Origin: a bacterium
GTDB taxonomy: Bacteria; Patescibacteriota; Minisyncoccia; Phycocordibacterales; UBA2100
DNA: 64,000 bases
Assembly (NCBI GenBank): GCA_030674455.1
Contig: JAUSGQ010000007.1
Location: forward strand, 19,947-83,946
Direction: 5' to 3'
Positions 742-61,758 of this stretch are shown in pieces (position 1 is the stretch's first letter; each line of letters opens with the position of its first letter). The notes under the pieces are model-generated. The model searched no databases and was not told where the DNA came from. It saw only the letters and a list, made by a program, of their open reading frames with translations. A program made the translations under genes and the position numbers.

Positions 742-752
742 CCACTTTAATA

Positions 753-784
753 ACATTCCAACATTCTGCAGAATGTTGGAATGT
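753..784. repeat. perfect 32-bp palindrome ACATTCCAACATTCTG|CAGAATGTTGGAATGT, followed by a TTCTAGAAATGCT tail (copy 1 of 2)
   Basis: Self-complementary on inspection. A second near-identical copy lies at 1394..1425. Confidence 0.9.
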
Positions 785-855
785 TCTAGAAATGCTTCGG
801 CGGCTGTTGAACCATTAGCACAATGAGAGACTGGATGTCCCAACGCCATAAACAA

Positions 856-1380: not shown

Positions 1381-1393
1381 ATTAACCCCCGTG

Positions 1394-1425
1394 ACATTCC
1401 AATATTCTTGAGAATGTTGGAATGT
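1394..1425. repeat. copy 2 of the 32-bp palindrome (2 mismatches), plus CGAGAAATGCTA tail
   Basis: ACATTCCAATATTCTTGAGAATGTTGGAATGT. It is in direct orientation with copy 1 (753..784). Confidence 0.9.
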
Positions 1426-1545
1426 CGAGAAATGCTACTGACACAACTGTCCGTAACTATTGACTCATTCTCACGAATTAGACAATAAGGAATTCTATTG
1501 ATGATTTATAACGATCTATTTTGAGCTGGTTTTTTATCGAATACC

Positions 1546-1623
1546 AACTACTTGCTTATTCGCGCGAATAAGCAAGTAGTTACGCAACTAATCTTCCTCC
1601 CTCCATACTCCATACGCGATACG
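1546..1623. repeat. intergenic element, copy 1. It has a perfect 36-bp palindrome AACTACTTGCTTATTCGC|GCGAATAAGCAAGTAGTT (TTCGCGCGAA core) and a conserved ATACTCCATACGCGATACG tail.
   Basis: A second copy lies at 2615..2706, with one mismatch in the palindrome and an identical tail. Confidence 0.85.
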
Positions 1624-2614: not shown

Positions 2615-2706
2615 AACTACTTGCTTATTCGCGCGAATGAGCAAGTAGTTGAGTATAAATAGTTGAGTATCGAATCTTTCTATATGAATACTCCATACGC
2701 GATACG
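2615..2706. repeat. intergenic element, copy 2 (palindrome AACTACTTGCTTATTCGCGCGAATGAGCAAGTAGTT plus ATACTCCATACGCGATACG tail)
   Basis: Matches 1546..1623. Confidence 0.85.
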
Positions 2707-7982: not shown

Positions 7983-8216
7983 TGTAGGACTTACGCAACA
8001 TCTGAATCGTCTTTGCGAGGCTTTGCCGAAGCAATCTAGGGTTAGAGCTGTAGATTCTGGATTGCTTCGCTCCGCTCGCAAAGACGGGAAGCTCGGTTTT
8101 ACGCTGTCTTTTGGGGTTCTTGCGTAGGTCCTATAGTATAAAAGTATTCCGTATACGGTATTCAGTATTCCGACTTCCATACTGTATACAGAATACAAAA
8201 TACTGTATACTGATAA

Positions 8217-14477: not shown

Positions 14478-14532
14478 CCTTTATTCACTTGCAGCGAATT
14501 CAAAGAGCGCGCTGGCTTTCATACGGGGCAGG

Positions 14533-14587
14533 CCCCGCTAGAAAGGCCTCACTGATGAGTCCTATTGAAGCCCTTAGACACGAATAA
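14533..14587 (+). pseudogene. duplicate of the permease 3' terminus (encodes PARKASLMSPIEALRHE*), part of a ~110-bp tandem duplication
   Basis: The first 37 nt are identical to 14423..14459. The last 6 codons differ only synonymously, so the peptide is identical. Confidence 0.75.
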
Positions 14588-14686
14588 ACTTAATTATCTT
14601 GCTGTGTAAGTTATTGATCACGCTGGCCTCCTTACGGGGCATGCGACCGCCAAAGAAACTTTCTCAATTTTGCCAAGACAGAATGT

Positions 14687-20302: not shown

Positions 20303-22378
20303 ATGAGTAAATCTGGCGTATTCAAGCTACGTAGTGATTATCGACCAGCTGGAGATCAACCTACGGCTATAAAGTCACTCGTCGACGGCTTGAAAGAAGG
20401 GAAACGACACCAGACACTACTTGGCGTCACCGGTTCCGGCAAGACCTTTACGATGGCAAATGTGATTGAAAAAACGCAGAAACCTACGCTCGTCATTGCG
20501 CACAACAAGACGCTTGCCGCTCAACTCACTGCGGAATATCGCGAGTTCTTTCCCGAAAATGCAGTGCATTACTTTGTTTCTTATTACGATTACTATCAGC
20601 CGGAAGCATATATGCCGATAAGCGATACATATATCGAAAAAGAATCGCAAGTAAATGAGGACATAGAAAGGCTGCGGCACGCGGCGACGCAGGCGCTGCT
20701 TACAAGAAAAGATGTCATTGTCGTCGCGTCGGTCTCCTGCATTTATGGCCTAGGTAGCCCGTTTGAGTACGAGAAAGTAAACATGAAGCTCACGAAAGGA
20801 GAGCCGCTCACTCGCGCCGCTCTTATGAGACGACTAATCGGTATGTATTTCGAAAGAGTTGCCGGCGACCTTTCGCCCGGCACTTTTCGCGCGCTTGGCT
20901 CGTACGTGGAGATCATGCCGGCAAACGAGAGAATTATTAAAAGAATCGACCTCTCACAAGGTAAAGTCTCTAAAATAGAAGAAATCGACGCGACAACGCG
21001 TGAATCATTAGGGACGCACGACGCAATATTTGTTTTCCCGGCGAAGCATTATGTGACACCAAAGGATGTGCAAGAACTTGCACTTACTGATATTGAGCTC
21101 GAGCTTAAGGAACAGTTAAAAAAGTTTGATGCGGCTGGCAAAATATTGGAGGCGGAGCGATTGAAGCGAAGGACTCGTCAGGACATCTCAATGATACGCG
21201 AGTTCGGATTCTGCAACGGTATTGAAAATTATTCGCGGCACTTCGACAGACGGCAAGCGGGAGAGCCGCCGCATACTCTGCTTTCGTATTTTACGAAGAA
21301 TGTTGGAAGTTCAACGGATTTTCTCACAATTATAGATGAATCGCACGTTACCGTTCCGCAGATAGGCGGCATGTACGCAGGAGACCGCGCGCGCAAGGAT
21401 ATGCTGGTGCAACACGGATTCCGGCTTCCGAGCGCGATTGATAACAGACCGCTCAATTTTGATGAATTCCAAGAGCGTGTCGGACAAACAATTTATACGA
21501 GCGCGACACCCGGAACGTATGAATTAGAACATAGCGGCAAACCTATCGAACAGGTCATCCGCCCTACAGGACTCGTTGACCCAGAAATTATCGTGAAGCC
21601 CATCGTGGGCGGTGGACCGAGGACGGTCCTCAAGGGAGCCCGAGGACCGTCCTCGGTCCCCGAGAAGTATCCGGGGCAGGTAAAGGATTTCATCGCCGAG
21701 GCAGAAATCGTTACCAAGCGGGGCGGACGCTCGATGGTCACCGTCCTTACGAAAAAAATGGCAGAAGATCTGACAACCTTTTTGCTCGAAAAGAAGATTA
21801 GAGCGCAGTATGTACATTCCGACGTGAAAACAATCGAAAGAATAGAAATTCTTACGAATTTCCGCAAGGGCACGTTTGATGTATTGGTCGGCGTCAACTT
21901 ATTGCGAGAAGGATTGGATTTGCCCGAAGTCGAGCTCGTAGGAATTATGGACGCCGATAAAGAGGGCTTTCTGCGTTCCGAAACTTCACTCATCCAAACA
22001 ATCGGCCGAGCTGCGAGAAACGTGCTGGGTCGTGTGATTTTGTACGCGGATTCTCCTACGGGTTCTATGGAGAGGGCAATTCGCGTGACAAATGAGAGGC
22101 GCGCCCGCCAAATTGAATACAATAAGAAGCATGGTATTACGCCAAAAACGATAAAGACTAGGATAAAAGATATCGTGGGAGATATCGTAAGCGCAAGAAG
22201 GCGTGCGGTATTTGACCTTGCAAAGCTCGATTCTGCGGCATATGCGGGAAGCAAGGCAAGCTTAATCACAGCCAAGCGACGAGAAATGCGAGAGGCAGCG
22301 AGTATACTTGATTTTGAAACAGCCGCGCTTTTGCGGGATGAAATTCAAGAACTTGAAAAGGGTAAACGAAAGCGATAA
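20303..22378 (+). CDS. uvrB: excinuclease ABC subunit B
   Basis: Helicase motifs GVTGSGKT, the beta-hairpin region YYDYYQPEAY and a C-terminal UVR domain. Confidence 0.95.
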   Translation: MSKSGVFKLRSDYRPAGDQPTAIKSLVDGLKEGKRHQTLLGVTGSGKTFTMANVIEKTQKPTLVIAHNKTLAAQLTAEYREFFPENAVHYFVSYYDYYQPEAYMPISDTYIEKESQVNEDIERLRHAATQALLTRKDVIVVASVSCIYGLGSPFEYEKVNMKLTKGEPLTRAALMRRLIGMYFERVAGDLSPGTFRALGSYVEIMPANERIIKRIDLSQGKVSKIEEIDATTRESLGTHDAIFVFPAKHYVTPKDVQELALTDIELELKEQLKKFDAAGKILEAERLKRRTRQDISMIREFGFCNGIENYSRHFDRRQAGEPPHTLLSYFTKNVGSSTDFLTIIDESHVTVPQIGGMYAGDRARKDMLVQHGFRLPSAIDNRPLNFDEFQERVGQTIYTSATPGTYELEHSGKPIEQVIRPTGLVDPEIIVKPIVGGGPRTVLKGARGPSSVPEKYPGQVKDFIAEAEIVTKRGGRSMVTVLTKKMAEDLTTFLLEKKIRAQYVHSDVKTIERIEILTNFRKGTFDVLVGVNLLREGLDLPEVELVGIMDADKEGFLRSETSLIQTIGRAARNVLGRVILYADSPTGSMERAIRVTNERRARQIEYNKKHGITPKTIKTRIKDIVGDIVSARRRAVFDLAKLDSAAYAGSKASLITAKRREMREAASILDFETAALLRDEIQELEKGKRKR
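21614..21662. repeat. in-frame palindromic insert in uvrB (CCGAGGACGGTCCTC-AAGGGAGC-CGAGGACCGTCCTCGG), encoding GGGPRTVLKGARGPSSVPE
   Basis: The inverted repeat is visible. Relative to E. coli UvrB as I recall it, this region carries an extra segment of about 20 aa. Confidence 0.7.
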
Positions 22379-24536: not shown

Positions 24537-24590
24537 ATGTTATATTGCTCAGTACCAACCCTAGCGCAAAGCGAGGGTCGGTTTGTGTTT

Positions 24591-27287
24591 ATGTCAAAAA
24601 AAAACGAACATTCAGGGGAAGCCGAGAAAATCGTAGTTAAAGGCGCACGCACGCATAACTTGAAGAACATCACGGTAGAAATACCGCGGAATAAAATGGT
24701 GGTTTTTACAGGCCTTTCCGGCTCTGGGAAATCATCTCTCGCTTTTGACACCATATTTGCCGAGGGCCAGCGCAAATACGTGGAGTCTCTTTCTGCCTAT
24801 GCCCGTCAGTTCTTGCGGCAAATGCAAAAACCGGATGTCGATGAGATATCCGGCCTATCTCCTGCCATTTCAATAGACCAAAAATCGCGCTCGAATAATC
24901 CACGTTCCACAGTCGCTACAATTACCGAAATCTATGATTATCTGCGTGTTCTCTATGCGAGAGTAGGCAAACCTCACTGCACTATCTGCGGCAGGGAAGT
25001 TAAGAAACATACGAATGAGGAGATACTTGAGTCAGTTCTCAAAATAGTGGACAAGGCTCGAAAGTACCAAGGAGAGACCTTAAAATACCCAAGGTCTCAC
25101 CTTAAGGTTCAAGATAAGAAGCTCACAAAAAATGTATCGAGCGCAAAGGTCACAATAACGTCACCGGTGGTTGTCGGTAGAAAAGGGGAGTACTACCAGC
25201 TTCTTTATGACTTGCTCAATAAGGGATTCGAGAAAGTAATAATTGATGGCGAAGAGAAGAAGCTGCGTGAAAGAATCATTCTCGAGAAGAATCATAAACA
25301 CGATATAGATGTCGTGGTCGATGAAATATTTGTCAGTGAATTTGCCGACGATGCGAAAGCTGCGCGCGAACGGGCATCGGAAGCTATCGAAAGAGCTCTG
25401 CATGAATCCAATGGGCTGGTAAAGATAATAGGCGCGAGCGGAGAATCACACATTGTCTCGGCAAAGTTTATGTGCCCGTACGACGGATTCTCATTTCCTG
25501 AAATCGAGCCGCGGCTCTTTTCGTTCAATTCTCCGCATGGCGCTTGCCCCGCATGCAATGGCCTAGGTTCTAAGTATTTCTTTGGCGACGAGCCGTGCGA
25601 TGTGTGTAATGGTGCCCGGTTGCGTCCGGAGGCATTAAATGTGTTTCTTGGGACAAATAGTCGAGGAGACACCTCGCAAGCGAGGAGCCACCTCGACTCA
25701 CCCCATGGTCTGCATATTGTCGATTTAAGCTCGTCATCTATAGACGACGCAAAGAAATTCTTTGACTCGCTTAAACTTACCAAAAAGGAAGAGGAAATAT
25801 CCAAGGTCGTAATCAAAGAAATTATGAGCCGGCTGCGCTTTATGCAAGATGTCGGCATTGAATACTTAACACTCGACCGAAAAGCCAACACTCTATCGGG
25901 CGGTGAAGCACAGCGCATTCGTCTGGCATCACAGCTTGGAAGCGGGCTCGTTGGCGCGCTCTATGTGCTTGATGAGCCGACAATCGGGCTTCACCAGCGC
26001 GACAACGACAAACTTATTGAGACTCTCAAACACCTGCGCGATATCGGCAATACAGTAATCGTGGTAGAACACGATGAGGACACCATTTTCGCATCCGATT
26101 ACATCGTGGATCTAGGCCCTGGCGCTGGCATTCATGGAGGTAATGTCGTGGTGTCGGGGTGGCTCGATGAGCTATTGACCGCCAAATCCAATAAGTCCGG
26201 CTCGCGTACTCTTGCGTATCTACGTGGAGAGTCATCAATTGAAACGCCGGAGAAATGGCGAACTGCTGACAGAGGAAAGATAAAAATTCGCGGGGCTTCA
26301 AAATTTAACATTAAAAATATAAACGTTGATATACCGCTCGGCAAACTTGTGGCAATCACGGGGGTGTCTGGTTCCGGCAAGTCGACGTTTCTCTATGAGA
26401 TGCTTCATCGCAATTTGCTGGCGCGCTTTGATAAGCGGTACCGTACGGCAAAAATCTACAACTGCAAGGAATTCAGCGGAACGGAATATCTTTCACGCTC
26501 CATATTGATTGATCAATCGCCCATAGGAAGAACCCCGCGCTCAAATCCTGCAACGTACACAGGTGCTTTCACGCACATTCGCGACCTATTCGCGATGAGC
26601 GAGGATGCTCGAGCGCGCGGATGGGGTCCGGGACGATTTAGCTTCAATGTAAAAGGCGGGCGATGTGAGGTATGCCAGGGCAACGGCCTTGTCGCTGTCG
26701 AAATGCACTTTTTGCCGACGGTCTATGTCACATGCGACATGTGCAACGGAAAACGTTTTATGAAGGAGACACTTGATGTTAAATATAAAAAGAAAAGCAT
26801 TTATGACGTGTTATCCATGACCGTCGAAGAGGCCTCGGCCTTCTTTGAGGATGTTCCTGCAATATCTGACAGGTTAAAAACTTTGTCTGATGTTGGCCTG
26901 GACTATCTAGAACTCGGCCAGAGCGCGACAACTCTATCCGGCGGTGAAGCGCAGCGAGTGAAAATTGCGTCAGAACTATATCGGCCGTTGGATGCAAAAA
27001 CGATGTACCTGTTGGATGAACCCACTGTGGGACTCCACTACGACGACGTGCAAAAACTTATCGATATATTGCAAAAGCTGGTTCAGCGGGGAAATAGCGT
27101 CGTTGTTATCGAACACAATCTTGATGTCTTGAAATGCGCAGATTGGATTATGGATATGGGACCGGAAGGAGGCGCCGGAGGCGGCGAAATCGTAGCCCGA
27201 GGAACGCCGCTCGAAGTTTCTAAAACCGACGGCTCATACACCGGATATTATCTGAAGCGAGTTTTGAAGAGAAAGGTAAAAGATTGA
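24591..27287 (+). CDS. uvrA: excinuclease ABC subunit A
   Basis: Two ABC modules with zinc-finger Cys clusters. The start is set at Met 24591 to avoid overlapping the terminator. Confidence 0.95.
25660..25697. repeat. in-frame imperfect palindrome or direct repeat in uvrA (GTCGAGGAGACACCTCGC-AA-GCGAGGAGCCACCTCGAC), encoding [14 protein letters not shown]
   Basis: It uses the same CGAGGA/TCCTCG word as the uvrB insert. Relative to E. coli UvrA as I recall it, this region is about 18 aa longer. Confidence 0.55.
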
Positions 27288-27303
27288 GATGTCATCTCAA
27301 TCT
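27281..27303. terminator. hairpin AGATTGAGATG-T-CATCTCAATCT overlapping the uvrA stop codon (family of 3)
   Basis: 11-bp arms. Related copies lie at 36390..36420 and 41847..41867. Confidence 0.5.
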
Positions 27304-27538
27304 TTTCATCCTAAAGGGGTTTTAAAGCTATCCGGAGCTTAAGCTTGACTCAAATTCTGCAGGGTGTACAAAGCCATTATCATCGGCTGTTTTGTGGTCG
27401 ATGATCCGTTCCTCTGAGGGAAAGTGAGGGATTGTAGGTGGCATAAAAAGCCACACGCGGGATGTATTCAAAGCATCCCCAATGTGACCGGACTCTGACA
27501 CAACACGATTCGTGTGTTGCAGTGGCCGGTCTTTTTCT

Positions 27539-30500
27539 TTATGTATATGCATCGACCGAGATAGATTTGAGTTCAGACGCCTTAATTCCTGCAAAAGCCA
27601 TGATGAATGCCTCGGCAAGCTGGCGATTGGTTATGAGCGGTATATTCAAGTCCACCGCTTTTCGGCGGATTATGTAGCCGTCTATCGCATCGCGGCCAAA
27701 TGCTTGAGCGGGAATATTTATTATCAAATCTACTTTACCTTTCTCTATAAGCGTTCCTACATTGGGCTCCTTGCCTCCGATTTTATAAACCTTTTCACAT
27801 GCAATTCCATTTTCTCTCATAAAATCGGCAGTATGCTCGGTGGCAAATAACTTGAAATTCATTTTGGCCAATTCTTGCAGAGCGGATAGTAATTTAATTT
27901 TATTTTCCTCTTTTCCCAAGGAAATCAGTATATTTCCCGACGCTTTGGTCGGGATCCCGACCTCGCTTCGCGAGCGTCGGGACTTATACGGCAATCTCCG
28001 ACGCTTTGGTCGGGGCAGGCGGAATCCTGAAGCAAGCATTGATTTAATCAGAGCTTCTGAAAATGTATCACCAAAACAAGCGACTTCGCCGGTAGAAGCC
28101 ATTTCCACGTTGGAAACGGGGTCGGCACCCTTTATGCGCGCATAGGAGAATTGCGGCGACTTTACTGCAATGTAATCAAGTTCAAGGGTGCGATAATCGC
28201 CGGAAACGTCTTTACCGAGCATCGCGCGCGTAGCAATATCAATAAAGTTATATCCCGTAGCTTTTGACACGAAAGGAAAGCTTCGAGATGAACGAACATT
28301 GCACTCAATGACTTGCAAATGGTTATCTTTTGCGATGAATTGAATATTGAACGGGCCGGTAATTTTCAGTTCTTTGACGACGTCCTTCGTGATGTGTTTA
28401 GCTCGTCGAATTGTCTCCATATATGTGCGCTGGGGAGGCAAAACCACCGTAGCGTCGCCAGAGTGCGTGCCGGCATTTTCGACGTGCTCCGTAATCGCGT
28501 AAATTATGAGCTTCCCGCGCGAAGCAACTCCGTCAATTTCAATTTCCCGCGCATTCTCGATAAATTTGGAAATCACGACCGGATGTTCCGTAGAGATATC
28601 AACCGCGCGTTTGAGAAAGCGCAAAAGAGATGTCTCGTCGTGCGCAACGCTCATCGCAGAGCCGGAGAGAACATATGACGGCCGGACAAGCACGGGATAT
28701 CCGATTCGCGCCGCAGCTATCGCTGCTTCTTTATGAGTAGTAAGTTCTACCCACTCGGGCTGATCAATTTCGAGCCTATCAAGAAGTTTAGAGAATGTGT
28801 GCCTGTCTTCGGCGCGGTCTATATCTTCTGGTTTTGTTCCCATGATTCTTACTCCTCGCTTATGCAGTGGGAGCGCGAGATTATTCGGAATTTGGCCGCC
28901 AGTAGAAATTACGACTCCTCGCGCTTTCTCAAATTGATAAATATCTAGAACACGCTCAAGCGAAAGTTCTTCAAAATACAGTCGGCTCGACATGTCGTAG
29001 TCGGTTGAAACGGTCTCCGGATTTGAATTTATCATTATCGTTTCGTATTCATTTTTTGAAAGAGTTTTTAACGCTTGTACGCAAGACCAATCAAATTCTA
29101 CCGACGAACCGATGCAATACGGTCCGCTTCCAAGGACGATCATACTTTTCTTGGTGCGACCTATATCATTCTCGGTCCCGTTATACGTCACATACAGATA
29201 ATTTGTTTTGGCGGGAAATTCTCCAGCCAAAGTGTCGATTTGCTTTATAACTGGCAGGATTTTGTGGCGCATTCGCTCCTGTCGGATCTTATCCTCAGTA
29301 CTTTTAATCAATGTGGCAATTTGAATATCAGAAAAACCAAGCTTCTTAGCCTCGAGCATGTCTTCTCTAAGAAGGTCTGACCTTCCAGGAAGGTCAGACC
29401 TTCTGAGATTTCTCGAGCAACGCATGATGTTCTTCATTTTTTCTAGAAACCACGGATCAATGCCGCCGGAAAGACGGCTGATCTTTGAGACGGACGTACC
29501 TCTGCGAAGTGCCTCTGCAATGGCAAAAATGCGGCGGGTAGTCGGGTGCTTGATTTCATCCAGATAATTTGCCACGCGAAAGTTACCATTTTTATGCGCT
29601 ACAAAACCATCCGCGCCAATGGAAAGCATACGAATAGCTTTCTGCAGTACCTCCTCAAAACTTCTGCCGATTGCCATCACTTCTCCCACACTTTTCATCT
29701 CCGTACCAATTTGCGTGATGGCATTCTCAAATTTCGTCAAATCCCAGCGCGGCATTTTAAGCACGATGTAATCAAGCGCCGGCTCGAAACAGGCCGTCGT
29801 GGATTTGGTTACCGAGTTTTTTAGTTGCGGCAGAGTAAAGCCCATTGCGAGTTTCGCCGCAATGAACGCGAGCGGATATCCTGTGGCCTTTGAGGCAAGC
29901 GCAGATGAGCGGGAAAGGCGCGCATTAACTTCTATGACGCGATAATCTCCGGTTTTCGGATGAAGCGCGTACTGTATATTGCATTCTCCCACGACGCCGA
30001 GATGCCTGATGGTCTTTATCGCGATTTCGCGCAAGCGATGATACTCCTCGTTCGTAAGAGTTTGTGACGGCGCCACGACCATACTTTCGCCCGTATGAAT
30101 GCCCATCGGGTCTATGTTTTCCATATTGCAAACGGAAATGCAGTTGTCGGTTCTGTCGCGCACAATTTCATACTCAACTTCTTTCCAACCGCACAAATCT
30201 TCTTCGATCAATACCTGCGGACTCGAGCCAAAGATTTCTGACAGTTTAGCGACAAGTTCTTTTTCCGTACGAACCACTCCGGAGCCAAGGCCGCCCAAGG
30301 CGAATCCCGCGCGCAACATGACCGGATAACCGATTTTTGTCGCCGCCTTTTTGGCATCAGATATATTTCTTGCTGCGAAACTTCGCGCTGTCTTAACATC
30401 AATTTTTTGCAGCCGCTTTATGAACATGTCTCTATCTTCTGTTTCGCGTATGACAGATACCGGTGTTCCCAAAACCTGCACTTTGTATTTAGAGAGAATC

Positions 30501-30838
30501 CCTTTCTCCTCCAGTTCAAGGCCGAGATTAAGCGCGGTTTGGCCGCCGAACCCTAGGAGAATCGCATCGGGTTTTTCTTTCTTGATAACCTGTACGGCAA
30601 ACGGCAAGGTAAGTGGCAAGAGGTAGACGACGTCTGCTACGTTTTCACTCTTTGCATCAGTTCCTTGAGCTGGCGAGTCCGTTTGAACTGTTGCGATATT
30701 CGGATTTATGAGTATGACGCGAATGCCTTCTTCTTTAAGAGCCTTAATCGCTTGTGTGCCGGAGTAATCAAATTCTCCGGCCTGACCGATTTTAAGACCG
30801 CCTGAACCGAGCAACAATACTTTTTTTATGGTCGTCAT
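27539..30838 (-). CDS. carB: carbamoyl-phosphate synthase large subunit
   Basis: 1099 aa with two ATP-grasp halves and an MGS-like C-terminal domain. Confidence 0.95.
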   Translation of the reverse strand: MTTIKKVLLLGSGGLKIGQAGEFDYSGTQAIKALKEEGIRVILINPNIATVQTDSPAQGTDAKSENVADVVYLLPLTLPFAVQVIKKEKPDAILLGFGGQTALNLGLELEEKGILSKYKVQVLGTPVSVIRETEDRDMFIKRLQKIDVKTARSFAARNISDAKKAATKIGYPVMLRAGFALGGLGSGVVRTEKELVAKLSEIFGSSPQVLIEEDLCGWKEVEYEIVRDRTDNCISVCNMENIDPMGIHTGESMVVAPSQTLTNEEYHRLREIAIKTIRHLGVVGECNIQYALHPKTGDYRVIEVNARLSRSSALASKATGYPLAFIAAKLAMGFTLPQLKNSVTKSTTACFEPALDYIVLKMPRWDLTKFENAITQIGTEMKSVGEVMAIGRSFEEVLQKAIRMLSIGADGFVAHKNGNFRVANYLDEIKHPTTRRIFAIAEALRRGTSVSKISRLSGGIDPWFLEKMKNIMRCSRNLRRSDLPGRSDLLREDMLEAKKLGFSDIQIATLIKSTEDKIRQERMRHKILPVIKQIDTLAGEFPAKTNYLYVTYNGTENDIGRTKKSMIVLGSGPYCIGSSVEFDWSCVQALKTLSKNEYETIMINSNPETVSTDYDMSSRLYFEELSLERVLDIYQFEKARGVVISTGGQIPNNLALPLHKRGVRIMGTKPEDIDRAEDRHTFSKLLDRLEIDQPEWVELTTHKEAAIAAARIGYPVLVRPSYVLSGSAMSVAHDETSLLRFLKRAVDISTEHPVVISKFIENAREIEIDGVASRGKLIIYAITEHVENAGTHSGDATVVLPPQRTYMETIRRAKHITKDVVKELKITGPFNIQFIAKDNHLQVIECNVRSSRSFPFVSKATGYNFIDIATRAMLGKDVSGDYRTLELDYIAVKSPQFSYARIKGADPVSNVEMASTGEVACFGDTFSEALIKSMLASGFRLPRPKRRRLPYKSRRSRSEVGIPTKASGNILISLGKEENKIKLLSALQELAKMNFKLFATEHTADFMRENGIACEKVYKIGGKEPNVGTLIEKGKVDLIINIPAQAFGRDAIDGYIIRRKAVDLNIPLITNRQLAEAFIMAFAGIKASELKSISVDAYT
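27935..28015. repeat. structured insert in the carB C-terminal region (direct repeats TCCCGACGCTTTGGTCGGG x2 with CTCGCTTCGCGAG between), encoding RPKRRRLPYKSRRSRSEVGIPTKAS on the minus strand
   Basis: Nested hairpins are visible. An arginine-rich segment of about 25 aa is absent from E. coli CarB at this position, as I recall it. Confidence 0.6.
29370..29404. repeat. perfect 17-1-17 palindrome AGAAGGTCTGACCTTCC-A-GGAAGGTCAGACCTTCT in frame in carB, encoding RRSDLPGRSDL
   Basis: The palindrome reads RSDLPGRSDL on both strands. It appears to be an 11-12-aa insertion relative to other CarB sequences. Confidence 0.75.
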
Positions 30839-30843
30839 ATGAG

Positions 30844-30943
30844 TGCCAATCTACAAATGGACTCCAATCTACAAATAACTACGAATAAGCAATGCTCACA
30901 TTTGTAGCTATTCGTAGTATTCGGATGATTCGTAGATTGGGAC
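30844..30943. repeat. ~100-bp composite palindromic repeat (CCAATCTACAAAT ... ATTCGTAGATTGG), family copy R1 of 6, REP/BIME-like
   Basis: It shares words with the copies at 42502, 47001, 48156, 49350 and 61654, and it fills the carA-carB spacer. Confidence 0.85.
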
Positions 30944-30955
30944 ATAATAAATATT

Positions 30956-32014
30956 CTAGATGCTGATAGAACGTATAAACTCATCAAATATCCATGCGGT
31001 GTCCGTTGGCCCCGGTGCTGCCTCGGGGTGGAACTGCACAGCTCGCCAGGCTTTTGATTTGTGCTTGATGCCCTCCACGCTTCCGTCATTCGCGTTGGTG
31101 AACCATACAGCCCAATCATGCGGAAGCGATTTTGCGTCAACAGCATACCCGTGATTTTGCGATGTTATGTAACAACGGCCTGTCTCCTGATCTACGCATG
31201 GTTGATTTTGTGAGCGATGACCGTATTTGAGCTTGTATGTACTTCCGCCCGCGGCGAGCGCCAAGAGTTGAGTTCCGAGGCAGATGCCTAATATCGGCTT
31301 TGGCATAAGCATTGCACGCTTGAGATTTTCAATTGTATTGCCGCACATGTTTGGGTCGCCGGGCCCGTTGGAAATCACAAGCGCATCATGCGGCTCATTC
31401 GCAAAATCATAGTCCCATGGAACGCGTACGATCGTAATTTCAGGGCGCACGAGTGAGCGCAAAATATTTTCCTTCATCCCGCAGTCAACTATAACGATGG
31501 TAGTGGCCCCATTGCCGTACGTTTCCGGCTTTTTTATACTGACCCGCGCAACGAGATTCTCCTTATTCGGGTCAACAAAAGCCGATGCAGTGAGGCGTCG
31601 CCTCACTGCATTCACAGGCCTGGCGTCTATTATGCCGAGCATCACACCGTGTTCGCGCAATTTTTTTGCAAGCGCACGCGTATCTACGCCCGTAATTGCC
31701 GGAACACCGGAGCGCTTAAGCCACTCCGATAATGACTCGCACGCCAACTGGTGCGAATAATTCTCGGAATAGTCCGCCACGATTAGGCCAGCGGCCTGGA
31801 TTTTATCGGATTCAAAATATTTACGTTCTGGCACGCCATAATTTCCCACCAGAGGATAGCTCAAGACAATGATTTGTCCTGCATATGAGGGGTCCGATAA
31901 GCTCTCTACATATCCGACCATCCCCGTGTTAAAAACCACCTCGCCGGATGCCGATACGGGTGCGCCAAAGCTTTTACCCTCAAATACTGTCCCGTCTTTA
32001 AGAGTTAATTTCAT
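30956..32014 (-). CDS. carA: carbamoyl-phosphate synthase small subunit (glutamine amidotransferase)
   Basis: GATase class I motifs, including ICLGHQ-like GICLGTQ. Confidence 0.9.
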   Translation of the reverse strand: MKLTLKDGTVFEGKSFGAPVSASGEVVFNTGMVGYVESLSDPSYAGQIIVLSYPLVGNYGVPERKYFESDKIQAAGLIVADYSENYSHQLACESLSEWLKRSGVPAITGVDTRALAKKLREHGVMLGIIDARPVNAVRRRLTASAFVDPNKENLVARVSIKKPETYGNGATTIVIVDCGMKENILRSLVRPEITIVRVPWDYDFANEPHDALVISNGPGDPNMCGNTIENLKRAMLMPKPILGICLGTQLLALAAGGSTYKLKYGHRSQNQPCVDQETGRCYITSQNHGYAVDAKSLPHDWAVWFTNANDGSVEGIKHKSKAWRAVQFHPEAAPGPTDTAWIFDEFIRSISI

Positions 32015-32238
32015 AATGTATGAGACCCTACTTCGCTTCCTCCTACGTCAAGACTACGGAGGACAAGAAAGCTACGAAGGGTTGCTCTCTCATGAAAATG
32101 CCCGCTTACTGCGGGCAGAAATGGAGAGCAAAAAAATACACCCGGGCGGGTGTTTCTCTTATTAATTCCTTGCGAGTTCATTAAAGTTGAATTATATGCC
32201 CATATTTGCCGGTGTCAAATTTTAACCTGGCTGTGGAT

Positions 32239-33561
32239 ATGTCGCGTGAGTATACTGGAAACATGGTGCGCGATGACTTAATCAAATTTAAATTGCCCGA
32301 CAGTCCGGGTATATACTATTATCGAAATTCGAGGGGCAAAATTCTATACATTGGTAAAGCTACATCTCTGCGCGACCGCGTACGGAGCTATTTTTTGTCA
32401 GGTCTATCGGAATCTCGAAGCACGGCAATCGCAGCAATGATAGATGAGACGCACTCCGTCACATGGCAAACGACCGAGTCGGTTCTTGAAGCTCTGATAC
32501 TCGAAGCGAATGAGATAAAAAAACATCAGCCGAAATACAATGCACGAGAAAAGGACGACAAGAGCTTTAATTTTCTCGTAATCACAAAGGAAGATTTCCC
32601 GCGCGTTTTAGTAATTCGCGGCCGCGAACTATTTTCTCCACTTATCGCTAATCGCTATTCGCTAACCGCTATCTTCGGCCCATATCCGCAGGGACGTTCA
32701 CTGCAAGAAGCTCTGAAAATCGTTCGGAAAATATTTCCTTTCCGCGATAAATGCATTCCATGTGACACTGCGGAAAAATCCTTACTTTCTAATTCGCGCG
32801 AATTAGAAAGTAAAGAAACTCATGTACATCTTAAACATAAATGCAGGCCGTGCTTCAATCATCAGATAGGATTATGTCCCGGTGTATGCAGTGGGGAAAT
32901 ATCAAAAAACGATTATGCTCGAACTATACGACACATTAAGACTCTATTTTCAGGGAAAATAAAGAGGTTGAAGAGGGATCTGGAACGAGAAATGAGAGCC
33001 GAATCGAAAGCCGAGCGATTTGAAAAGGCCGCCATATTGCGTCGACAAATTGGTTCGTTAAACCACATACGCGACGTATCGCTAATAAATAACGATAACA
33101 TGGCCGATTTACCCAGGAAACCTACGAGGATAGAGGCGTATGACGTGGCACATACGTCGGGATCGGAGACAGTAGCCGTAATGACTGTTGTGAATAATGG
33201 CGAGCCCGAAAAGAGTTCCTACAGAAAATTCAAGATTCAAACTGCTGCAAACGACGACATTGGAGCACTCAAAGAGGTTCTCTCACGCCGCCTGGCGCAC
33301 TCGGAGTGGCCCTTGCCGAGCGTGTTTGTTGTGGACGGAGGAACTGCGCAATTGCGTGCGGCCGCAAATATTCTAAAAGACGCTGGTATAATGATTCCCG
33401 TGGTATCTGTGGTAAAAAACGAATTTCATAAACCCGAACGGCTCATGGGAGATACGAATGCAATTAAGACCTTGGGAAAAGAAATTCTTCTTGCCAATCA
33501 AGAAGCGCATCGTTTTGCGATTACGTATCATAGAAAACGACGAGGTCGACTAACGATATGA
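32239..33561 (+). CDS. uvrC: excinuclease ABC subunit C, short form lacking C-terminal HhH
   Basis: GIY-YIG motif (PGIYYY...ILYIGKA), a UVR domain and an RNase H-like endonuclease domain. The track start at 32206 is also possible. Confidence 0.85.
   Translation: MSREYTGNMVRDDLIKFKLPDSPGIYYYRNSRGKILYIGKATSLRDRVRSYFLSGLSESRSTAIAAMIDETHSVTWQTTESVLEALILEANEIKKHQPKYNAREKDDKSFNFLVITKEDFPRVLVIRGRELFSPLIANRYSLTAIFGPYPQGRSLQEALKIVRKIFPFRDKCIPCDTAEKSLLSNSRELESKETHVHLKHKCRPCFNHQIGLCPGVCSGEISKNDYARTIRHIKTLFSGKIKRLKRDLEREMRAESKAERFEKAAILRRQIGSLNHIRDVSLINNDNMADLPRKPTRIEAYDVAHTSGSETVAVMTVVNNGEPEKSSYRKFKIQTAANDDIGALKEVLSRRLAHSEWPLPSVFVVDGGTAQLRAAANILKDAGIMIPVVSVVKNEFHKPERLMGDTNAIKTLGKEILLANQEAHRFAITYHRKRRGRLTI
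32782..32813. repeat. perfect 32-bp palindrome TTACTTTCTAATTCGC|GCGAATTAGAAAGTAA in frame in uvrC (encodes LSNSRELESK)
   Basis: TTCGCGCGAA core, as in the intergenic copies and the yggS copy. Confidence 0.8.
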
Positions 33562-34461: not shown

Positions 34462-34488
34462 GATGAATTGAGGTGTTATAATTTCGAA

Positions 34489-35460
34489 ATGTCGCGGACT
34501 ATAGTCGGCGTTTTGCGCGGGGGGACATCAAACGAATATGCTCTTTCGCTCAAAACGGGTGCGGCTCTTCTTTCTGCACTACCGGAAGAGAAGTATGACA
34601 CTCGCGATATTCTCGTGGACAAGAGCGGCGTGTGGCATTCGCGAGGAATTCCAATGGATGCTCCGCGTGCGCTGGCGCAAATCGATGTCGTTCTGAACGG
34701 ATTGCACGGCGGCGCCGGCGAAGATGGCACGGTGCAGCGCCTATTAGATAGGGCAGGAGTCGCATATGCAGGTTCGCGCGCGCGAGGCGCAGCTGTTTCG
34801 CTCAACAAATCCCTTTCGCACGAAATTTTGCAGAAAGCGGGAATACAGATGCCGCGCGCCGTTTCATTTACCCTTAACAATCAAATTGATACCGGCGAGA
34901 TGGCTCAAGCGGTTTTCTCTCAATTCGGCCCTCCATATATTGTAAAGCCCGTGAATGATGGCGCTTCTCATGGCATTCGTTTTGCCGTCAATCTGCTCGA
35001 GCTGCCGGATGCTATCGGCGACATTTTGGATGAATACGGAGCTGCCCTGATTGAAGAGTTTGTCTTAGGGGATGAAGTCAGTGTGGGTGTAATTGATAAT
35101 TATCGCGGACAAGAATTGTACGTTTTGCCGCCGGCACATGTGCATTACCCCGATGAGAGCAAATTTCTCACTCACCATGTACATGAGAACGCGACTGCGA
35201 AATACGAATGCCCGAGCAATTTCACGCACGAGGAAAAACAAGCTATTGAAGAAATGGCGCGGACCGCTCACCGCGCACTCGAACTTTCGCATTTTTCACG
35301 CGCCGACATTATCTTGACGCGCCGAGGCCCGTACCTCTTGGAGGTTAACGCATTGCCCGGATTGTATTCCGGAGCATCCCTTCCGGTAATGCTTGAAGCC
35401 GTCGGAGCATCAACAGGGGAGTTTGTAGAGCATGCAATCGGTCTCGCGAAGCAATATTAG
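34489..35460 (+). CDS. ddl: D-alanine--D-alanine ligase
   Basis: ATP-grasp fold with Ddl N-terminal motifs (GGxSxE). The likely start is Met 34489. Confidence 0.85.
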   Translation: MSRTIVGVLRGGTSNEYALSLKTGAALLSALPEEKYDTRDILVDKSGVWHSRGIPMDAPRALAQIDVVLNGLHGGAGEDGTVQRLLDRAGVAYAGSRARGAAVSLNKSLSHEILQKAGIQMPRAVSFTLNNQIDTGEMAQAVFSQFGPPYIVKPVNDGASHGIRFAVNLLELPDAIGDILDEYGAALIEEFVLGDEVSVGVIDNYRGQELYVLPPAHVHYPDESKFLTHHVHENATAKYECPSNFTHEEKQAIEEMARTAHRALELSHFSRADIILTRRGPYLLEVNALPGLYSGASLPVMLEAVGASTGEFVEHAIGLAKQY

Positions 35461-35507: not shown

Positions 35508-35580
35508 GGGCCGGTAGTTCAGTGGTAGAACGTCTCATTTGCAATGAGAAGGTCGGGGGTTCGATTCCTCTCCGGTCCAC
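35508..35580 (+). tRNA. tRNA-Ala (anticodon UGC)
   Basis: Acceptor stem GGGCCGG/CCGGTCC with the G3:U70 Ala identity pair, anticodon loop CTCATTTGCAATGAG (TGC) and T-loop GGTTCGATTCC. Confidence 0.9.
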
Positions 35581-35650: not shown

Positions 35651-36376
35651 ATGATCTCTAACGGGGTCCACAAAATGATTAGTGCAAATCTTAGGAATAT
35701 AGAAGGCGAAATGAGTAGCGCGGGTAGGAAAGTTACCTTGGTTGCTGTAACAAAAAGCGTGGGGATAGACGAAACAAACGAAATCATTAAAGCGGGAGTG
35801 CGCGCAATCGGAGAAAATAGAGTCGAGGATTTTGAAAAGAAAATCACGCAATTGCTTCCGGTAGAAAAGCATTTCATCGGGCAAATTCAATCGCGAAAGA
35901 TTAAACGAATTGTAGAACTATTTGATGTTATTCAATCTGTCGATTCAATCGAGCACTTAGAGAAAATCGAGAGGGAGGCAGTCTCTCAAAACAAAAAAAT
36001 AAAAATTCTTCTACAGTTCAATATTTCACGGGAGGCGCAAAGAGGCGGCTTCGAACCAAGTGATGTCGTACAAATTATTAAAGCTATTGGAAGGTATTCA
36101 CTATCGGTTAATTCGCGCGAATTAACCGATAAGAGCAATAGCATTTTGTCGATTCAACATGTGGAAATCATCGGAGTGATGGGAATGGCTAGCGATACTA
36201 CAGATACTGAAGTGGTGAGAGAGCAGTTTCGCTTGCTAAAAGATATTAGAGACCAATTGCAGTCGAAATATCCTAAAATCAAAGAACTGTCGATGGGCAT
36301 GTCTAGTGACTGCCAAATCGCCCTGGAGGAAGGCGCCACAATACTGCGAATCGGCAGGGCACTATTCAGCAATTAG
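35651..36376 (+). CDS. yggS: YggS-family pyridoxal phosphate homeostasis protein
   Basis: VTKSV, GENRVQ-like GENRVE, HFIGQIQSRK and SMGMSSD motifs. Confidence 0.85.
   Translation: MISNGVHKMISANLRNIEGEMSSAGRKVTLVAVTKSVGIDETNEIIKAGVRAIGENRVEDFEKKITQLLPVEKHFIGQIQSRKIKRIVELFDVIQSVDSIEHLEKIEREAVSQNKKIKILLQFNISREAQRGGFEPSDVVQIIKAIGRYSLSVNSRELTDKSNSILSIQHVEIIGVMGMASDTTDTEVVREQFRLLKDIRDQLQSKYPKIKELSMGMSSDCQIALEEGATILRIGRALFSN
36105..36128. repeat. perfect 24-bp palindrome CGGTTAATTCGC|GCGAATTAACCG in frame in yggS (encodes SVNSRELTDK)
   Basis: Same TTCGCGCGAA core and the same reading frame (NSREL) as the uvrC copy. Confidence 0.8.
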
Positions 36377-36389
36377 CGCGTTTCTTTGA

Positions 36390-36420
36390 CAATCCAATGA
36401 GATGTCATCTCATTGGATTG
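36390..36420. terminator. hairpin CAATCCAATGAGATG-T-CATCTCATTGGATTG, 14 nt after the yggS stop
   Basis: 15-bp arms. It belongs to the same GAGATGNCATCTC family as 27281 and 41847. Confidence 0.5.
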
Positions 36421-41444: not shown

Positions 41445-41515
41445 AGAAGCACAGCTTGAGGACTAGACTAGACCTTGCTGTGATGTTCAGCGTGGGTTAT
41501 AGTGTTCGCTTCATG

Positions 41516-41824
41516 GCAAAGATAGCTATCATAGAGACAGGAGGGAAGCAGTACCTGGTCACCCAGGATTCTGTTTTGAATGTTGAAAAGCTTCCCGCAA
41601 CTGACGGTAAAATCACTTTTGATAAGGTGTTGCTTGTGGATGACGGAAAAGAAACCACGGTTGGCGCACCATATATCGCCGGCGCAGTAGTCTCCGCGGA
41701 GCATGTTGCAGAAGGAAGAAACCCGACAGTTACCGTAATCAAATACCGCCAAAAGAGCCGATATTTCAAAAAGAGGGGACACAGACAGCCATTCACGAAA
41801 GTAAGAATCACCGCCCTGCCGTAG
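41516..41824 (+). CDS. rplU: 50S ribosomal protein L21
   Basis: MAKIAIIETGGKQY start. It is followed by terminator CCGCCCT...AGGGCGG-TTTT overlapping the stop. Confidence 0.9.
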   Translation, partial: AKIAIIETGGKQYLVTQDSVLNVEKLPATDGKITFDKVLLVDDGKETTVGAPYIAGAVVSAEHVAEGRNPTVTVIKYRQKSRYFKKRGHRQPFTKVRITALP

Positions 41825-41846
41825 GGCGGTTTTCTTATCCCAATCG

Positions 41847-41867
41847 ATTGAGATGACATCTCAATCC
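41847..41867. terminator. hairpin GATTGAGATG-A-CATCTCAATC after rplU (family of 3)
   Basis: 10-bp arms. A second hairpin ATGAGGTT-TAA-CCTCAT follows. Confidence 0.5.
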
Positions 41868-42501: not shown

Positions 42502-42597
42502 CCCAATCTACGAATCATCCGAATACTACAAATGACTGCAAATACTCGCATTTCTTATTCGTAGACATTTGTAGATTGGAATCCATTTGTAGATTGG
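42502..42597. repeat. composite GTAG-palindromic repeat, copy R2, filling the recR-dnaB spacer
   Basis: It has the words CCAATCTACGAAT and ATTTGTAGATTGG, the latter twice. Confidence 0.85.
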
Positions 42598-42601
42598 CAC
42601 T

Positions 42602-47000: not shown

Positions 47001-47114
47001 CCCAATCTGCAAATATATTCCAATCAACGAATGAATCCCAATCTACAAATGGCTACGAATGGACAATGCTTACATTTGTAGTTATTCGTAGTATTCGTAT
47101 CATTTGTAGATTGG
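47001..47114. repeat. composite GTAG-palindromic repeat, copy R3 (ends 7 nt before the mltG start)
   Basis: Same family. Confidence 0.85.
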
Positions 47115-47120
47115 AACTCT

Positions 47121-48155: not shown

Positions 48156-48266
48156 GCCAATCTGCGAATGATACGAATACTACGAATGGCTACAAATGTG
48201 AGTGTTGATTATTCGTAGTTATTTGTAGATTGGAATATATTCGTAGATTGGTACTTGTTAGATTGG
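48156..48266. repeat. composite GTAG-palindromic repeat, copy R4
   Basis: Same family. Confidence 0.85.
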
Positions 48267-48273: not shown

Positions 48274-49392
48274 ATGTCAAAAACAGTTTTCGTTGGTTTG
48301 TCGGGTGGCGTCGATTCCGCCGTTTCGGCTGCGCTGCTTAAAGAGCAAGGCTATAACGTCGCTGGCGTATTCATAAAAATCTGGCAACCTGAATTTATAG
48401 AATGCACGTGGGCGAAAGACCGTCTGGACGCGATGCGCGTTTGCGTTTCGCTCGGAATCCCGTTCCAGGAAATAGACCTTTCATCTGATTACAAACGCAC
48501 GGTTGTGGACGACATGATCTCCGCATATTCGCGCGGCATCACTCCAAATCCGGATGTCCTGTGCAATAGACACATAAAATTCGGCAGTTTTATGAACTAT
48601 GCGCGCAAAGAGGGTGCGGATTATATTGCGACGGGACATTACGCCCGTGTCGCCTTAGGCGACCGCAGATTTACGCAGAAAGAACCCAAAAACGTATACA
48701 AATTATTAAGAGGGTCAGATAACAATAAAGACCAGTCATACTTCTTGTACTTATTGAAACAGGATGACCTTGTGCATACGCTATTCCCCGTGGGAAATCT
48801 TTTAAAGTCAGAGGTAAGGAAGCTTGCAGCTAAGTTTTCTCTTCCTGTTGCAGAAAAATCCGATAGCCAAGGATTGTGCTTTGTCGGCGATGTGACGATG
48901 AAGGATTTTCTCTCGAGATATATGAAACTCGACGAAGGAAAAGTCATAGATACAAATGGCACATGCATAGGCAGTCACGAAGGAGCTGCGCTTTATACGA
49001 TAGGACAACGACACGGATTCACAACCGAGCGCCTTGCGGGTGACAGAACCCCGTACTATGTCGTCTCTGTTAATATTCCCGCGAATACAATAACTGTTTC
49101 CACAAGGCGCGACGACGCAACGCAAAAAGATATACGCATCGACTCAATGCATTGGATATCGGGCGCTCCGGAAATGCCGTTGCGCGCACAAACACAGGCG
49201 AGATATAGAGAAAAACCGAGCGAAGCAACAATTTCTGTAGAGGGTGGAGGTGTGAGCGTTGCTTTTGATGAGCCGCAAATTGCCGCGGCCGGGCAATCGA
49301 TCGTTGTGTATAACGACGACACATGTTTAGGCGGAGGCACCATAGAGTACCAATCTACGAATGAATTCCAATCTACAAATAACTACGAATAA
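48274..49392 (+). CDS. mnmA: tRNA-specific 2-thiouridylase MnmA. The last ~14 codons (YQSTNEFQSTNNYE) are encoded by repeat copy R5.
   Basis: PP-loop SGGVDS and MnmA domains. The ORF reads into the repeat before reaching a stop. Confidence 0.9.
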   Translation: MSKTVFVGLSGGVDSAVSAALLKEQGYNVAGVFIKIWQPEFIECTWAKDRLDAMRVCVSLGIPFQEIDLSSDYKRTVVDDMISAYSRGITPNPDVLCNRHIKFGSFMNYARKEGADYIATGHYARVALGDRRFTQKEPKNVYKLLRGSDNNKDQSYFLYLLKQDDLVHTLFPVGNLLKSEVRKLAAKFSLPVAEKSDSQGLCFVGDVTMKDFLSRYMKLDEGKVIDTNGTCIGSHEGAALYTIGQRHGFTTERLAGDRTPYYVVSVNIPANTITVSTRRDDATQKDIRIDSMHWISGAPEMPLRAQTQARYREKPSEATISVEGGGVSVAFDEPQIAAAGQSIVVYNDDTCLGGGTIEYQSTNEFQSTNNYE

Positions 49393-49444
49393 TCATTTCT
49401 CCACATTTGTAGCCATTCGTAGTATTCGTGCATTCGTAGATTGG
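49350..49444. repeat. composite GTAG-palindromic repeat, copy R5
   Basis: Same family. Confidence 0.85.
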
Positions 49445-49459
49445 GACTATACTATTTAA

Positions 49460-50341: not shown

Positions 50342-50449
50342 GTACAGTATACAGTATTCCGTATTCCGTATTCTGTATTCTGTATTTTTTATACAGTATA
50401 CTAGATACTGAATACAGTATACACGTTTAAGGGTGCTATACTTTGAATT

Positions 50450-59726: not shown

Positions 59727-59866
59727 AAGAGTATCTTGTATACTGTATGCTGTATTCAGTATGATAGAATCATCGTTATACACTTTAGTTGCGAGAGGGA
59801 GTTGTGTATTTATGAGTTATACTAAATACTAATACGGAATACTGTATACCGTATACTAATTTTGAT

Positions 59867-61749: not shown

Positions 61750-61758
61750 TACATATTT

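Follow-up and report, generated by a model that had tools for sequence, protein, structure and literature searches.

The window analysed here is a 64,000-nucleotide stretch of contig JAUSGQ010000007.1 (GenBank assembly GCA_030674455.1) from a member of the Patescibacteriota, with a G+C content of about 47%. It contains uvrC, encoding a short UvrC of the type found in the candidate phyla radiation (CPR), and yggS, encoding a pyridoxal phosphate (PLP) homeostasis protein, and each of these genes carries in frame a copy of a palindrome whose centre recurs between genes near the left end of the window. The palindrome copies, their two host genes and a 19-mer, ATACTCCATACGCGATACG, found downstream of the intergenic copies are as follows.

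32206..33561, plus strand: uvrC (short CPR-type UvrC), host gene, open reading frame (ORF) of 451 amino acids
32779..32816, plus strand: in-frame uvrC copy, 38 bp with one mismatch; perfect over 32 bp at 32782-32813, TTACTTTCTAATTC-GCGC-GAATTAGAAAGTAA
35651..36376, plus strand: yggS (PLP homeostasis protein), host gene, YggS-like ORF
36083..36142, plus strand: in-frame yggS copy, 60-nt imperfect hairpin with a perfect 30-bp tip at 36102-36131, TATCGGTTAATTC-GCGC-GAATTAACCGATA
1546..1581, no strand assigned: intergenic copy 1, perfect 36-bp palindrome AACTACTTGCTTATTC-GCGC-GAATAAGCAAGTAGTT, CTTATTC subtype
2615..2650, no strand assigned: intergenic copy 2, the sequence of copy 1 with a single mismatch (G at 2639)
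1457..1489, no strand assigned: degenerate fifth copy, CTATTGACTCATTC-TCAC-GAATTAGACAATAAG
1605..1623, plus strand: first copy of the 19-mer, exact, with ATACNNN heptamer units, in the same direct repeat as copy 1
2688..2706, plus strand: second copy of the 19-mer, exact, in the same direct repeat as copy 2

The 10-mer core TTCGCGCGAA has exactly four matches in the window (1559, 2628, 32793 and 36112), against a mean of 0.36 in dinucleotide-preserving shuffles, none of which (0 of 100) reached four, and all four copies, two of them intergenic and two in frame in uvrC and yggS, share the 12-mer ATTCGCGCGAAT without a difference. The four-copy family proposed in an earlier reading of the letters without database searches (the sequence-only reading) was thus borne out, as were its two in-frame coding copies, which read LLSNSRELESK in the UvrC-like ORF and LSVNSRELTDK in the YggS-like ORF. 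That reading had described four perfect palindromes; three are perfect (1546-1581, 32782-32813 and 36102-36131) and the one at 2615-2650 has one mismatch, while the yggS palindrome, claimed as 24 bp at 36105..36128, is indeed perfect and actually spans 30 bp at 36102-36131. The two intergenic copies are parts of one direct repeat of about 100 nt, consisting of the palindrome and a downstream ATAC-heptamer sequence, with a 14-nt indel between its two occurrences. The 19-mer said to follow both intergenic copies is exact at 1605 and 2688 but belongs to this local duplication, and since it lies inside the duplicated module it is not part of the palindrome family as such. Copy 2 lies upstream of purF (2777) with a TATAAA 15 nt downstream of it, and the right arm of the degenerate fifth copy, which the sequence-only reading had not listed, is that of the uvrC palindrome in a relative, locus L001. 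The 19-mer is a member of a class of ATACNNN/GTATNCN heptamer arrays that form long intergenic hairpins at 374-405, 8143-8210, 50339-50425 and 59730-59859, as well as at 1605-1623 and 2688-2719.

The best relatives of the window's UvrC are proteins from metagenome-assembled genomes named Candidatus Kaiserbacteria or Paceibacterota, and the database protein (P0001) has 432 amino acids, implying, from its length alone, a start near 32263. In an alignment of 32 orthologs, LLSNSRELESK falls in a variable loop between the FPFRDxCxPC and CxPCFN motifs; 7 orthologs have no content in the NSREL loop, others carry palindrome-type peptides with different arms (LSANSRELAD, LLSNSHELDN, LYAYSRELAY and LCANSHELAH), and FLSANSRELAD occupies a second site, after IRDVSLIK, in 8 orthologs and not in the window's UvrC. 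In the DNA of 80 genome loci, a basal loop of 17 amino acids without the CxPC...CxPC cysteines was found in about 25. The exact core was rare among these 80 uvrC loci of other Paceibacteria, beyond the closest relatives, so that the palindrome family is patchy rather than universal. The core CTAATTC..CGAATTAG of uvrC shows no difference at any position, synonymous ones included, between the window, L001, L002, L005 and L006, in a five-lineage uvrC alignment that averages 70% column identity overall. Three arm positions distinguish the palindrome of the window from that of L001, each of which (3/3) is compensated in the opposite arm, and hybrid arms occur in L002, L006 and L185. Given the unchanged synonymous positions of the core and the compensated arm differences, these copies appear to be still constrained at the level of DNA.

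The yggS insert amounts to about 20 amino acids, AIGRYSLSVNSRELTDKSNS, in a protein whose database version (P0121) has 233 amino acids, which by length alone implies a start near 35675. About 19 residues of this site have no counterpart in solved YggS structures, and among 34 orthologs the insert is kept in the closest relatives and absent from others at 62-65% identity. In an AlphaFold2 model of the protein (mean predicted local distance difference test score, pLDDT, of 84), residues 151-166, which connect a helix to a barrel strand, are predicted as coil at a pLDDT below 50. YggS orthologs show double changes in the arms, from C:G to T:A and from T:A to C:G, with one half-changed intermediate in L203. 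A tRNA gene, the sole Rfam match in the window, lies upstream at 35508-35579, between the ORF 34468-35460 and yggS.

The sequence-only reading had proposed a comparison with orthologs as a check, and would have been refuted by copies lying in segments conserved in orthologs without a palindrome. Instead, many orthologs have no counterpart of the segments that hold the uvrC and yggS copies; the coding copies are therefore lineage-specific insertions. We infer that both are old insertions held under DNA-level constraint. That the copies arose by chance, or as a codon- or protein-driven coincidence with NSREL as a functional peptide motif, could draw on the recurrence of the peptide and on nothing else. 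Against it stand the excess of the 10-mer core over shuffled sequence (4 observed, 0.36 expected), the use of identical codons in all lineages, the presence of the same DNA between genes and the position of the peptide in a loop that orthologs lack, and we regard it as practically negligible.

Beyond the window the family is widespread in metagenomes of Paceibacteria. Copies were collected by a metagenome scan with the pattern CTAATTCGCRCGAATTAG, which returned at least 120 loci, many of them from groundwater, with numerous copies from the Hainich wells, and together with other loci yielded 170 distinct copies. The unit that they define is 30 bp long with a 13-4-13 architecture, TA-NNNN-CT[A/T]ATTC-N4-GAAT[A/T]AG-NNNN-TA, around the core ATTC-N4-GAAT. 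Positions 1-7 from the centre are essentially fixed as CT[A/T]ATTC, a conservation partly imposed by the search pattern. Positions 8-13 are variable, with three to four pair types at each, and yet 74-93% Watson-Crick paired as compared to 36-60% in shuffled controls; past position 13 pairing falls towards background. The 6 nt outside the conserved half-site are self-complementary in 95 of the 170 copies, where random pairing predicts 7.4, which upholds the earlier proposal of one family with a constant centre and variable arms. Recurrent arm types are TATTCT, TATCGG, TATAGG, TATTGT, TACCGG and TACTTT, among others, and hybrids are present. An outer TA...TA (positions 12-13) is frequent, and as these ends are themselves palindromic a target-site duplication cannot be called from them. 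Strict matches are sparse, with three on one contig of 510 kb.

The shared N-S-R-E-L frame noted by the sequence-only reading holds for both coding copies of the window, but it is not a property of a mobile element: cTAAttc and gaatTAG place stops in the other two frames and both strands read alike, so that every coding copy encodes N-S-[R/H/C]-E-L. Further in-frame copies were found in hosts that we recognized by eye as MurD, a Dus-like enzyme, Fmt, an IscS/NifS-like enzyme, TatD (two sites), MnmA and MiaA; in MurD the copies of L088/L186 and L133 occupy the same site with compensated arms. Hairpins with arms of at least 12 nt number 182 in 1.27 Mb, as compared to 1 in 0.36 Mb of shuffled sequence, and by crude ORF calls about half of these 182 lie inside long ORFs.

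The palindromes of the family could act as RNA hairpins, the intergenic copies as bidirectional terminators or stabilizers of mRNA and the coding copies as translational pause or processing signals. The predicted folds are stable (-18.5 to -24.9 kcal/mol, z -4.5 to -7; copy 1 at 1546-1581, -22.1 kcal/mol, z -6.3), A-tracts or T-tracts flank some metagenome copies (L091, L139 and L132), and copies often lie at the 3' ends of genes. However, T-tracts occur in a minority of copies and most have no T-run, outside their centre the stems are AT-rich, and a terminator within uvrC or yggS would be harmful. G:T pairs are less common than other mismatches at every position examined, which points to a symmetry of the DNA type rather than the RNA type; G:U-compatible mismatches are correspondingly not favoured. 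The apical sequence is conserved, the variable 4-nt centre tracks a protein residue (see below) and no Rfam family matches the element. A scan for intrinsic terminators over positions 600-2900 gave no terminator-like site at 1546 or 2615. A role at the RNA level seems to us very unlikely.

The uvrC loop proved to be a hotspot in which unrelated perfect palindromes are found according to lineage (44 bp in L019; also L052, L030, L070, L012, L018, L060 and others). In L057 it holds, in frame as HSNILQNVGM, a palindrome of a type (pal-B, below) that is intergenic in the window. Further insert peptides of UvrC, LPAVARSGSEDAKEGAP (P0013, P0019 and P0022), SPIRTRGRKRPTSNGV (P0014, with a variant in P0027) and RSGRGPDLT / RFGRDPNST (P0005, P0020 and P0022), are probably encoded by other palindrome families. 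Palindromes of the present family have themselves received insertions. In L203 the centre of the uvrC palindrome is occupied in frame by a 120-nt element (1504-1623) that has terminal inverted repeats of 18 bp, differing by one mismatch, and a 4-bp GCAC duplication, and is a genuine miniature inverted-repeat transposable element (MITE) distinct from the palindrome that it interrupts. In yggS of L201 a 33-nt segment lies between arm and centre, and in L204 the same segment is reverse-complemented at the mirror position, so that it either was inserted twice or was inserted once and then flipped from one arm to the other. Among the loci that were fetched, this segment and the terminal inverted repeat of the L203 element occurred only at their original sites.

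These observations raise the question of whether the palindrome is a selfish element, comparable to a Rickettsia palindromic element (RPE) or a MITE, that persists as junk DNA where it is harmless. Insertions in frame across many unrelated housekeeping genes, different palindromes in the same UvrC loop by lineage, the hairpin density given above, outer TA...TA ends that resemble a TA target duplication, and the nesting of a true MITE (18-bp terminal inverted repeat, 4-bp target-site duplication) in a palindrome centre would all agree with such an origin. The mobile or recombinogenic character suggested by the sequence-only reading nevertheless found no confirmation: no associated transposase or recombinase, no unambiguous target-site duplication and no copy on a viral contig was detected, the palindrome having 0 matches in IMG/VR. 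By clustering of the ORFs around at least 120 metagenome loci, among the matches listed, no transposase or recombinase was recurrent near the boxes, as we call the copies of the unit; the only family strongly recurrent there was a small ArsR-like gene.

At about 30 loci among the matches listed, two boxes 300-400 bp apart surround this gene of 86-100 codons. Three representatives from related loci all matched the Pfam domain HTH_5 (28.9-37.2 bits, cutoff 22), and with HTH_20 (cutoff 27) two passed at 31.3 and 28.5 bits and one fell below at 25.4; precomputed Pfam hits of 120 homologs agree with the assignment to an ArsR-type winged helix-turn-helix (wHTH). More than 1,100 proteins belong to this family, distributed over Paceibacterota, Liptonbacteria, Azambacteria, Colwellbacteria and Ryanbacteria. 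In sequences inspected by eye, we saw neither an ELCVCDL-type (CVC) nor an alpha-5 metal motif, and most of the proteins have 0-1 Cys. The CTTATTC subtype of intergenic copy 1 is also present in L102, and in L176 it flanks an ArsR-like gene.

The position of the boxes relative to the gene is regular. For most of 31 genes, 11-15 nt separate the upstream box from a TATAAT-like hexamer on its 3' side, which is followed after 6-8 nt by the ATG, and this spacing puts the centre of the box at the -35 position. The downstream box often holds the TAA stop of the gene (...SLL-TAA-TTCGCGCGAAT), with the next gene behind it. When homologs were picked by protein sequence alone, an upstream box was found in 4/4, and in 3/4 a complete box also coincided with the stop or followed it, the fourth (L209) having only a left half-box at the stop. 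Where the TATAAT-like box stands 6-8 nt before the ATG, as in L086, L125, L135, L109, L167 and L168, there is no room for a Shine-Dalgarno sequence, which suggests leaderless transcripts of the ArsR-like regulator. The genes behind the downstream box are diverse and include aminoacyl-tRNA synthetases, folD, dus, ribosomal protein L21 and a zinc-ribbon protein. Genes for DNA repair turn up repeatedly among them, immediately past the box downstream of the ArsR-like gene, namely uvrB (L153; L051, 885), uvrC (L208, 8325) and dinB (L207, 10329); the regulator may be linked to DNA repair, a connection that we offer as a lead only.

The sequence of the protein further co-varies with that of the box. 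Where the recognition helix reads TS-K-HL, the flanking boxes have the centre GCGC in 28 of 29 cases, and where it reads TS-R-HL the centre differs from GCGC (GCAC, GTAC, GTGA or other) in all 24 boxes, so that the rule holds for 52/53 overall. In a crude neighbour-joining tree the K and R types are interleaved, with R forms at several separate places. The idea that the centre is a restriction site (CGCG/GCGC) was dropped, since the half-sites are conserved and the centre is not, and since the centre tracks the protein residue.

The same data bear on the selfish explanation, under which the association with the ArsR-like gene would be secondary and the boxes mere boundary hairpins. This sits poorly with a low apparent copy number (3 strict matches on a contig of 510 kb), with the fact that about one third of the collected copies flank one particular regulator gene, with covariation of a helix residue and the box centre, with a fixed position relative to the -10 boxes, and with a core conserved at synonymous sites over deep divergence and no transposase nearby. 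We therefore consider it unlikely that the palindrome is selfish DNA. Nor do the boxes seem to be dif- or attC-like recombination sites, whose 13-bp arms and short crossover would bound single-gene cassettes. The 13-4-13 architecture, the pairing of like palindromes around single genes (750/1393, 1546/2615 and the ArsR cassettes), the hybrid arms of L002, L006 and L185 and the insertions placed precisely in the centre, of which one is accompanied by a 4-bp duplication, are features such sites could display; yet genes for tyrosine or serine recombinases are not recurrent near the copies, the centre co-varies with a wHTH residue, and the layout of ArsR gene and boxes is conserved over many lineages, which hardly suggests mobile cargo. 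The odds against this explanation are long, and we hold it for a shade less credible still than a function in RNA.

We think it rather probable that the palindrome is the 30-bp operator of a small autoregulated wHTH repressor of the ArsR/SmtB family, widespread in the Paceibacteria of the CPR, and we lend comparable credence to the proposal that the same module was copied round the genome and inserted in frame into surface loops of housekeeping proteins, reaching at least 10 housekeeping gene families other than uvrC and yggS. In related DNA the repressor gene has its own box just 5' of the -10 and over the -35, a classical geometry for autorepression, and a second box at or overlapping its stop codon, ahead of the next gene. 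In the window, the two intergenic copies, with the degenerate third, would be promoter-proximal operators of the ORF 1844-2368 and of purF within the duplicated module of about 100 nt, and the cognate repressor would presumably be encoded elsewhere in the genome, outside the window. The coding copies are insertions of about 60 nt, made up of the same module with its outer hairpin, into loops of UvrC and YggS that are variable. They may have persisted because the module has one stop-free frame (N-S-R/H-E-L) and because additional residues are tolerated in these loops, and they are probably still bound, as an intragenic operator, a roadblock or a decoy, or else kept symmetric by hairpin-templated correction. 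Our best guess for the spread of the module would be copy-and-paste mediated by a hairpin or single-stranded DNA, or template switching, rather than a dedicated transposase. Template switching at quasipalindromes is a hairpin-based process of copying and correction, and such a process would explain both the self-complementarity of the arms and the entry into coding regions.

Several points weigh against the operator proposal. Binding of the protein to the box is a prediction drawn from promoter geometry and covariation. A dimeric repressor leaves the self-complementarity of the variable arms, which reach up to 23 nt, unexplained, and by itself gives no reason for operators inside coding regions. 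In L207-L209 the right arm does not extend the palindrome and GAAT is repeated instead (GAATAG-N2-GAATAG), so that long arms are not required by the protein; what goes with the protein is the ATTC-N4-GAAT box, to which some copies add long perfect arms. No ArsR-like gene was found in the 64-kb window by tblastn or by a profile hidden Markov model run over ORFs of at least 45 amino acids. No regulator was found either in the 6.4-kb extension (his genes) provided by L205, a Logan contig that is an independent assembly of the same sequence (window 1 to about 778). By direct reading, no obvious -10 box lies downstream of the coding copies in the window, and a consensus promoter scan over positions 600-2900 gave no more sites than in shuffles, with 0 at the intergenic palindromes.

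A bolder proposal joins the protein and the palindromes into a self-propagating operator system, in which the hairpin module is copied even into protein loops and thereby rewires a regulon in bacteria that have very few transcription factors. It would take the uvrB, uvrC and dinB genes behind the box, together with boxes inside uvrC, as a LexA-independent DNA-damage or repair regulon of Paceibacteria, and would have the perfect arms upheld by hairpin-templated (quasipalindrome) correction. Taken as a whole the proposal is quite doubtful.

The window holds a sister family of palindromes, pal-B (ACATTCCAACATTC-TGCA-GAATGTTGGAATGT), and other repeats, of which those with listed copies are the following.

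750..787, no strand assigned: pal-B copy a, AACATTCCAACATTC-TGCA-GAATGTTGGAATGTT, with the ATTC-N4-GAAT core
1393..1426, no strand assigned: pal-B copy b, 12 nt upstream of the start of the ORF 898-1380 (minus strand)
30846-30943, 42503-42600, 47020-47117, 48157-48254, 49350-49447 and 61652-61752: hairpin repeats made of 7-nt units

The ORF 898-1380 (minus strand) lies between the two pal-B copies. A divergent ArsR-like paralog of L051 is likewise placed between two copies of pal-B, with the same geometry of box, -10 and ATG, and is followed by uvrB, and in L206 pal-B is found in frame in a gene for an FAD-oxidase (4624-4655). The independent assembly L205 ends within pal-B, at about 778, and palindromes of this kind may break short-read assemblies. 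The intergenic hairpin repeats of 7-nt units (CTACAAAT / CTACGAAT, with CCAATCT ends) are about 100 nt long and present in five to seven copies.

Further long palindromes were seen within long ORFs of the window. That at 31585-31611 specifies NAVRRRLTA in the ORF 30956-32014 (minus strand), and it is found again in an ORF of similar length in L002; that at 29366-29408, in the ORF 27539-30838 (minus strand), encodes RRSDLPGRSDLL; and those at 21614-21659 and 25659-25698 lie inside the ORFs 20303-22378 and 24537-27287, respectively. These suggest that in-frame palindromic insertion is general in this lineage. Hairpins with a GAGATG-N-CATCTC centre and differing arms were seen at 27278-27306 and 36390-36420, just past gene ends (27287 and 36376), and at 41846-41866, overlapping the ORF 41497-41859; these short hairpins are another family of constant centre and variable arms, possibly serving as terminators. 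Finally, a 70-nt direct repeat with 86% identity (14423-14492 and 14533-14602) contains CUGAUGAG / CTGATGAG; its first copy is the 3' end of the ORF 13239-14477 and its second a duplicated gene-end fragment, and no Rfam ribozyme matched.

CPR bacteria, or Patescibacteria, are uncultured, with tiny genomes and few regulators, and to our knowledge almost nothing is known of their transcriptional control. The candidate pair of regulator and operator described here is conserved across many lineages of Paceibacteria and is testable, with a prediction of specificity built in, since Lys or Arg in the helix would go with GCGC or GCAC in the centre. In-frame palindromic insertions also account for part of the variation in length of CPR housekeeping proteins (UvrC, 402-529 amino acids) and for odd loops of low-complexity appearance in these proteins. 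In the full-text literature we found no description of such elements or of such a regulator in CPR; ArsR-type dyad operators and in-frame palindromic insertions (RPEs) are known kinds, and their combination in CPR appears to be undescribed.

Among known systems, SmtB and CzrA recognize 12-2-12 inverted repeats, and BigR is likewise an ArsR-family protein with a dyad operator. The present system resembles these in its small dimeric wHTH protein (HTH_5/HTH_20), its ATTC...GAAT half-sites and a dyad of about 30 bp over its own promoter. SqrR, also of the ArsR family, is a dimer when it binds ATTC-N8-GAAT (bioRxiv 10.64898/2026.05.15.721447), with a spacer of 8 nt where the boxes described here have 4. 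Further differences from ArsR/SmtB systems are that the proteins are minimal (86-100 amino acids) and, by eye, without CVC or alpha-5 metal motifs, that boxes flank the gene on both sides, with the stop codon inside the downstream one, and that boxes are also found in frame inside housekeeping genes. Repetitive extragenic palindromic (REP) sequences and REPINs, the mobile doublets that they form, are dispersed short palindromes, and the REP-associated tyrosine transposase (RAYT) gene, of the HUH/Y1 type, is flanked by two copies. Dispersed short palindromes with an associated gene between two copies are common to both systems, but the flanked gene encodes here a non-catalytic wHTH protein of 86-100 amino acids, the apparent copy number is low and copies lie inside ORFs. 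MITEs such as the Correia elements of Neisseria have terminal inverted repeats, TA flanks and regulatory signals, and occasionally insert in frame. The modules share with them a terminal inverted symmetry, possible TA flanks, possible regulatory signals and in-frame insertion, and differ in that the element would be made up of nothing but its inverted repeats (26-30 bp); among the listed loci, no parent insertion sequence was found.

The closest parallel for the coding copies is provided by RPEs, which are about 100-150 bp long, belong to an obligate intracellular genus of alpha-proteobacteria and were reportedly described by Ogata et al. in 2000 as hairpin repeats in frame in conserved housekeeping proteins. 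As with RPEs, hairpin repeats are found here in frame in conserved proteins (UvrC and YggS), absent from orthologs, and between genes as well, with no associated transposase, and they lie in tolerant loops, the YggS insert being modelled as a low-confidence coil. The modules appear to be unrelated in sequence to RPEs (mentioned in PMC1779305) and are set apart from them by size and taxon, measuring 30-60 nt and occurring in Kaiserbacteria and other Paceibacteria of the CPR, and they are further distinguished by their tie to a dedicated DNA-binding protein and by their promoter-proximal copies. The in-frame palindromes of Paceibacteria thus represent a parallel to the RPEs of Rickettsia in a wholly different lineage with reduced genomes.

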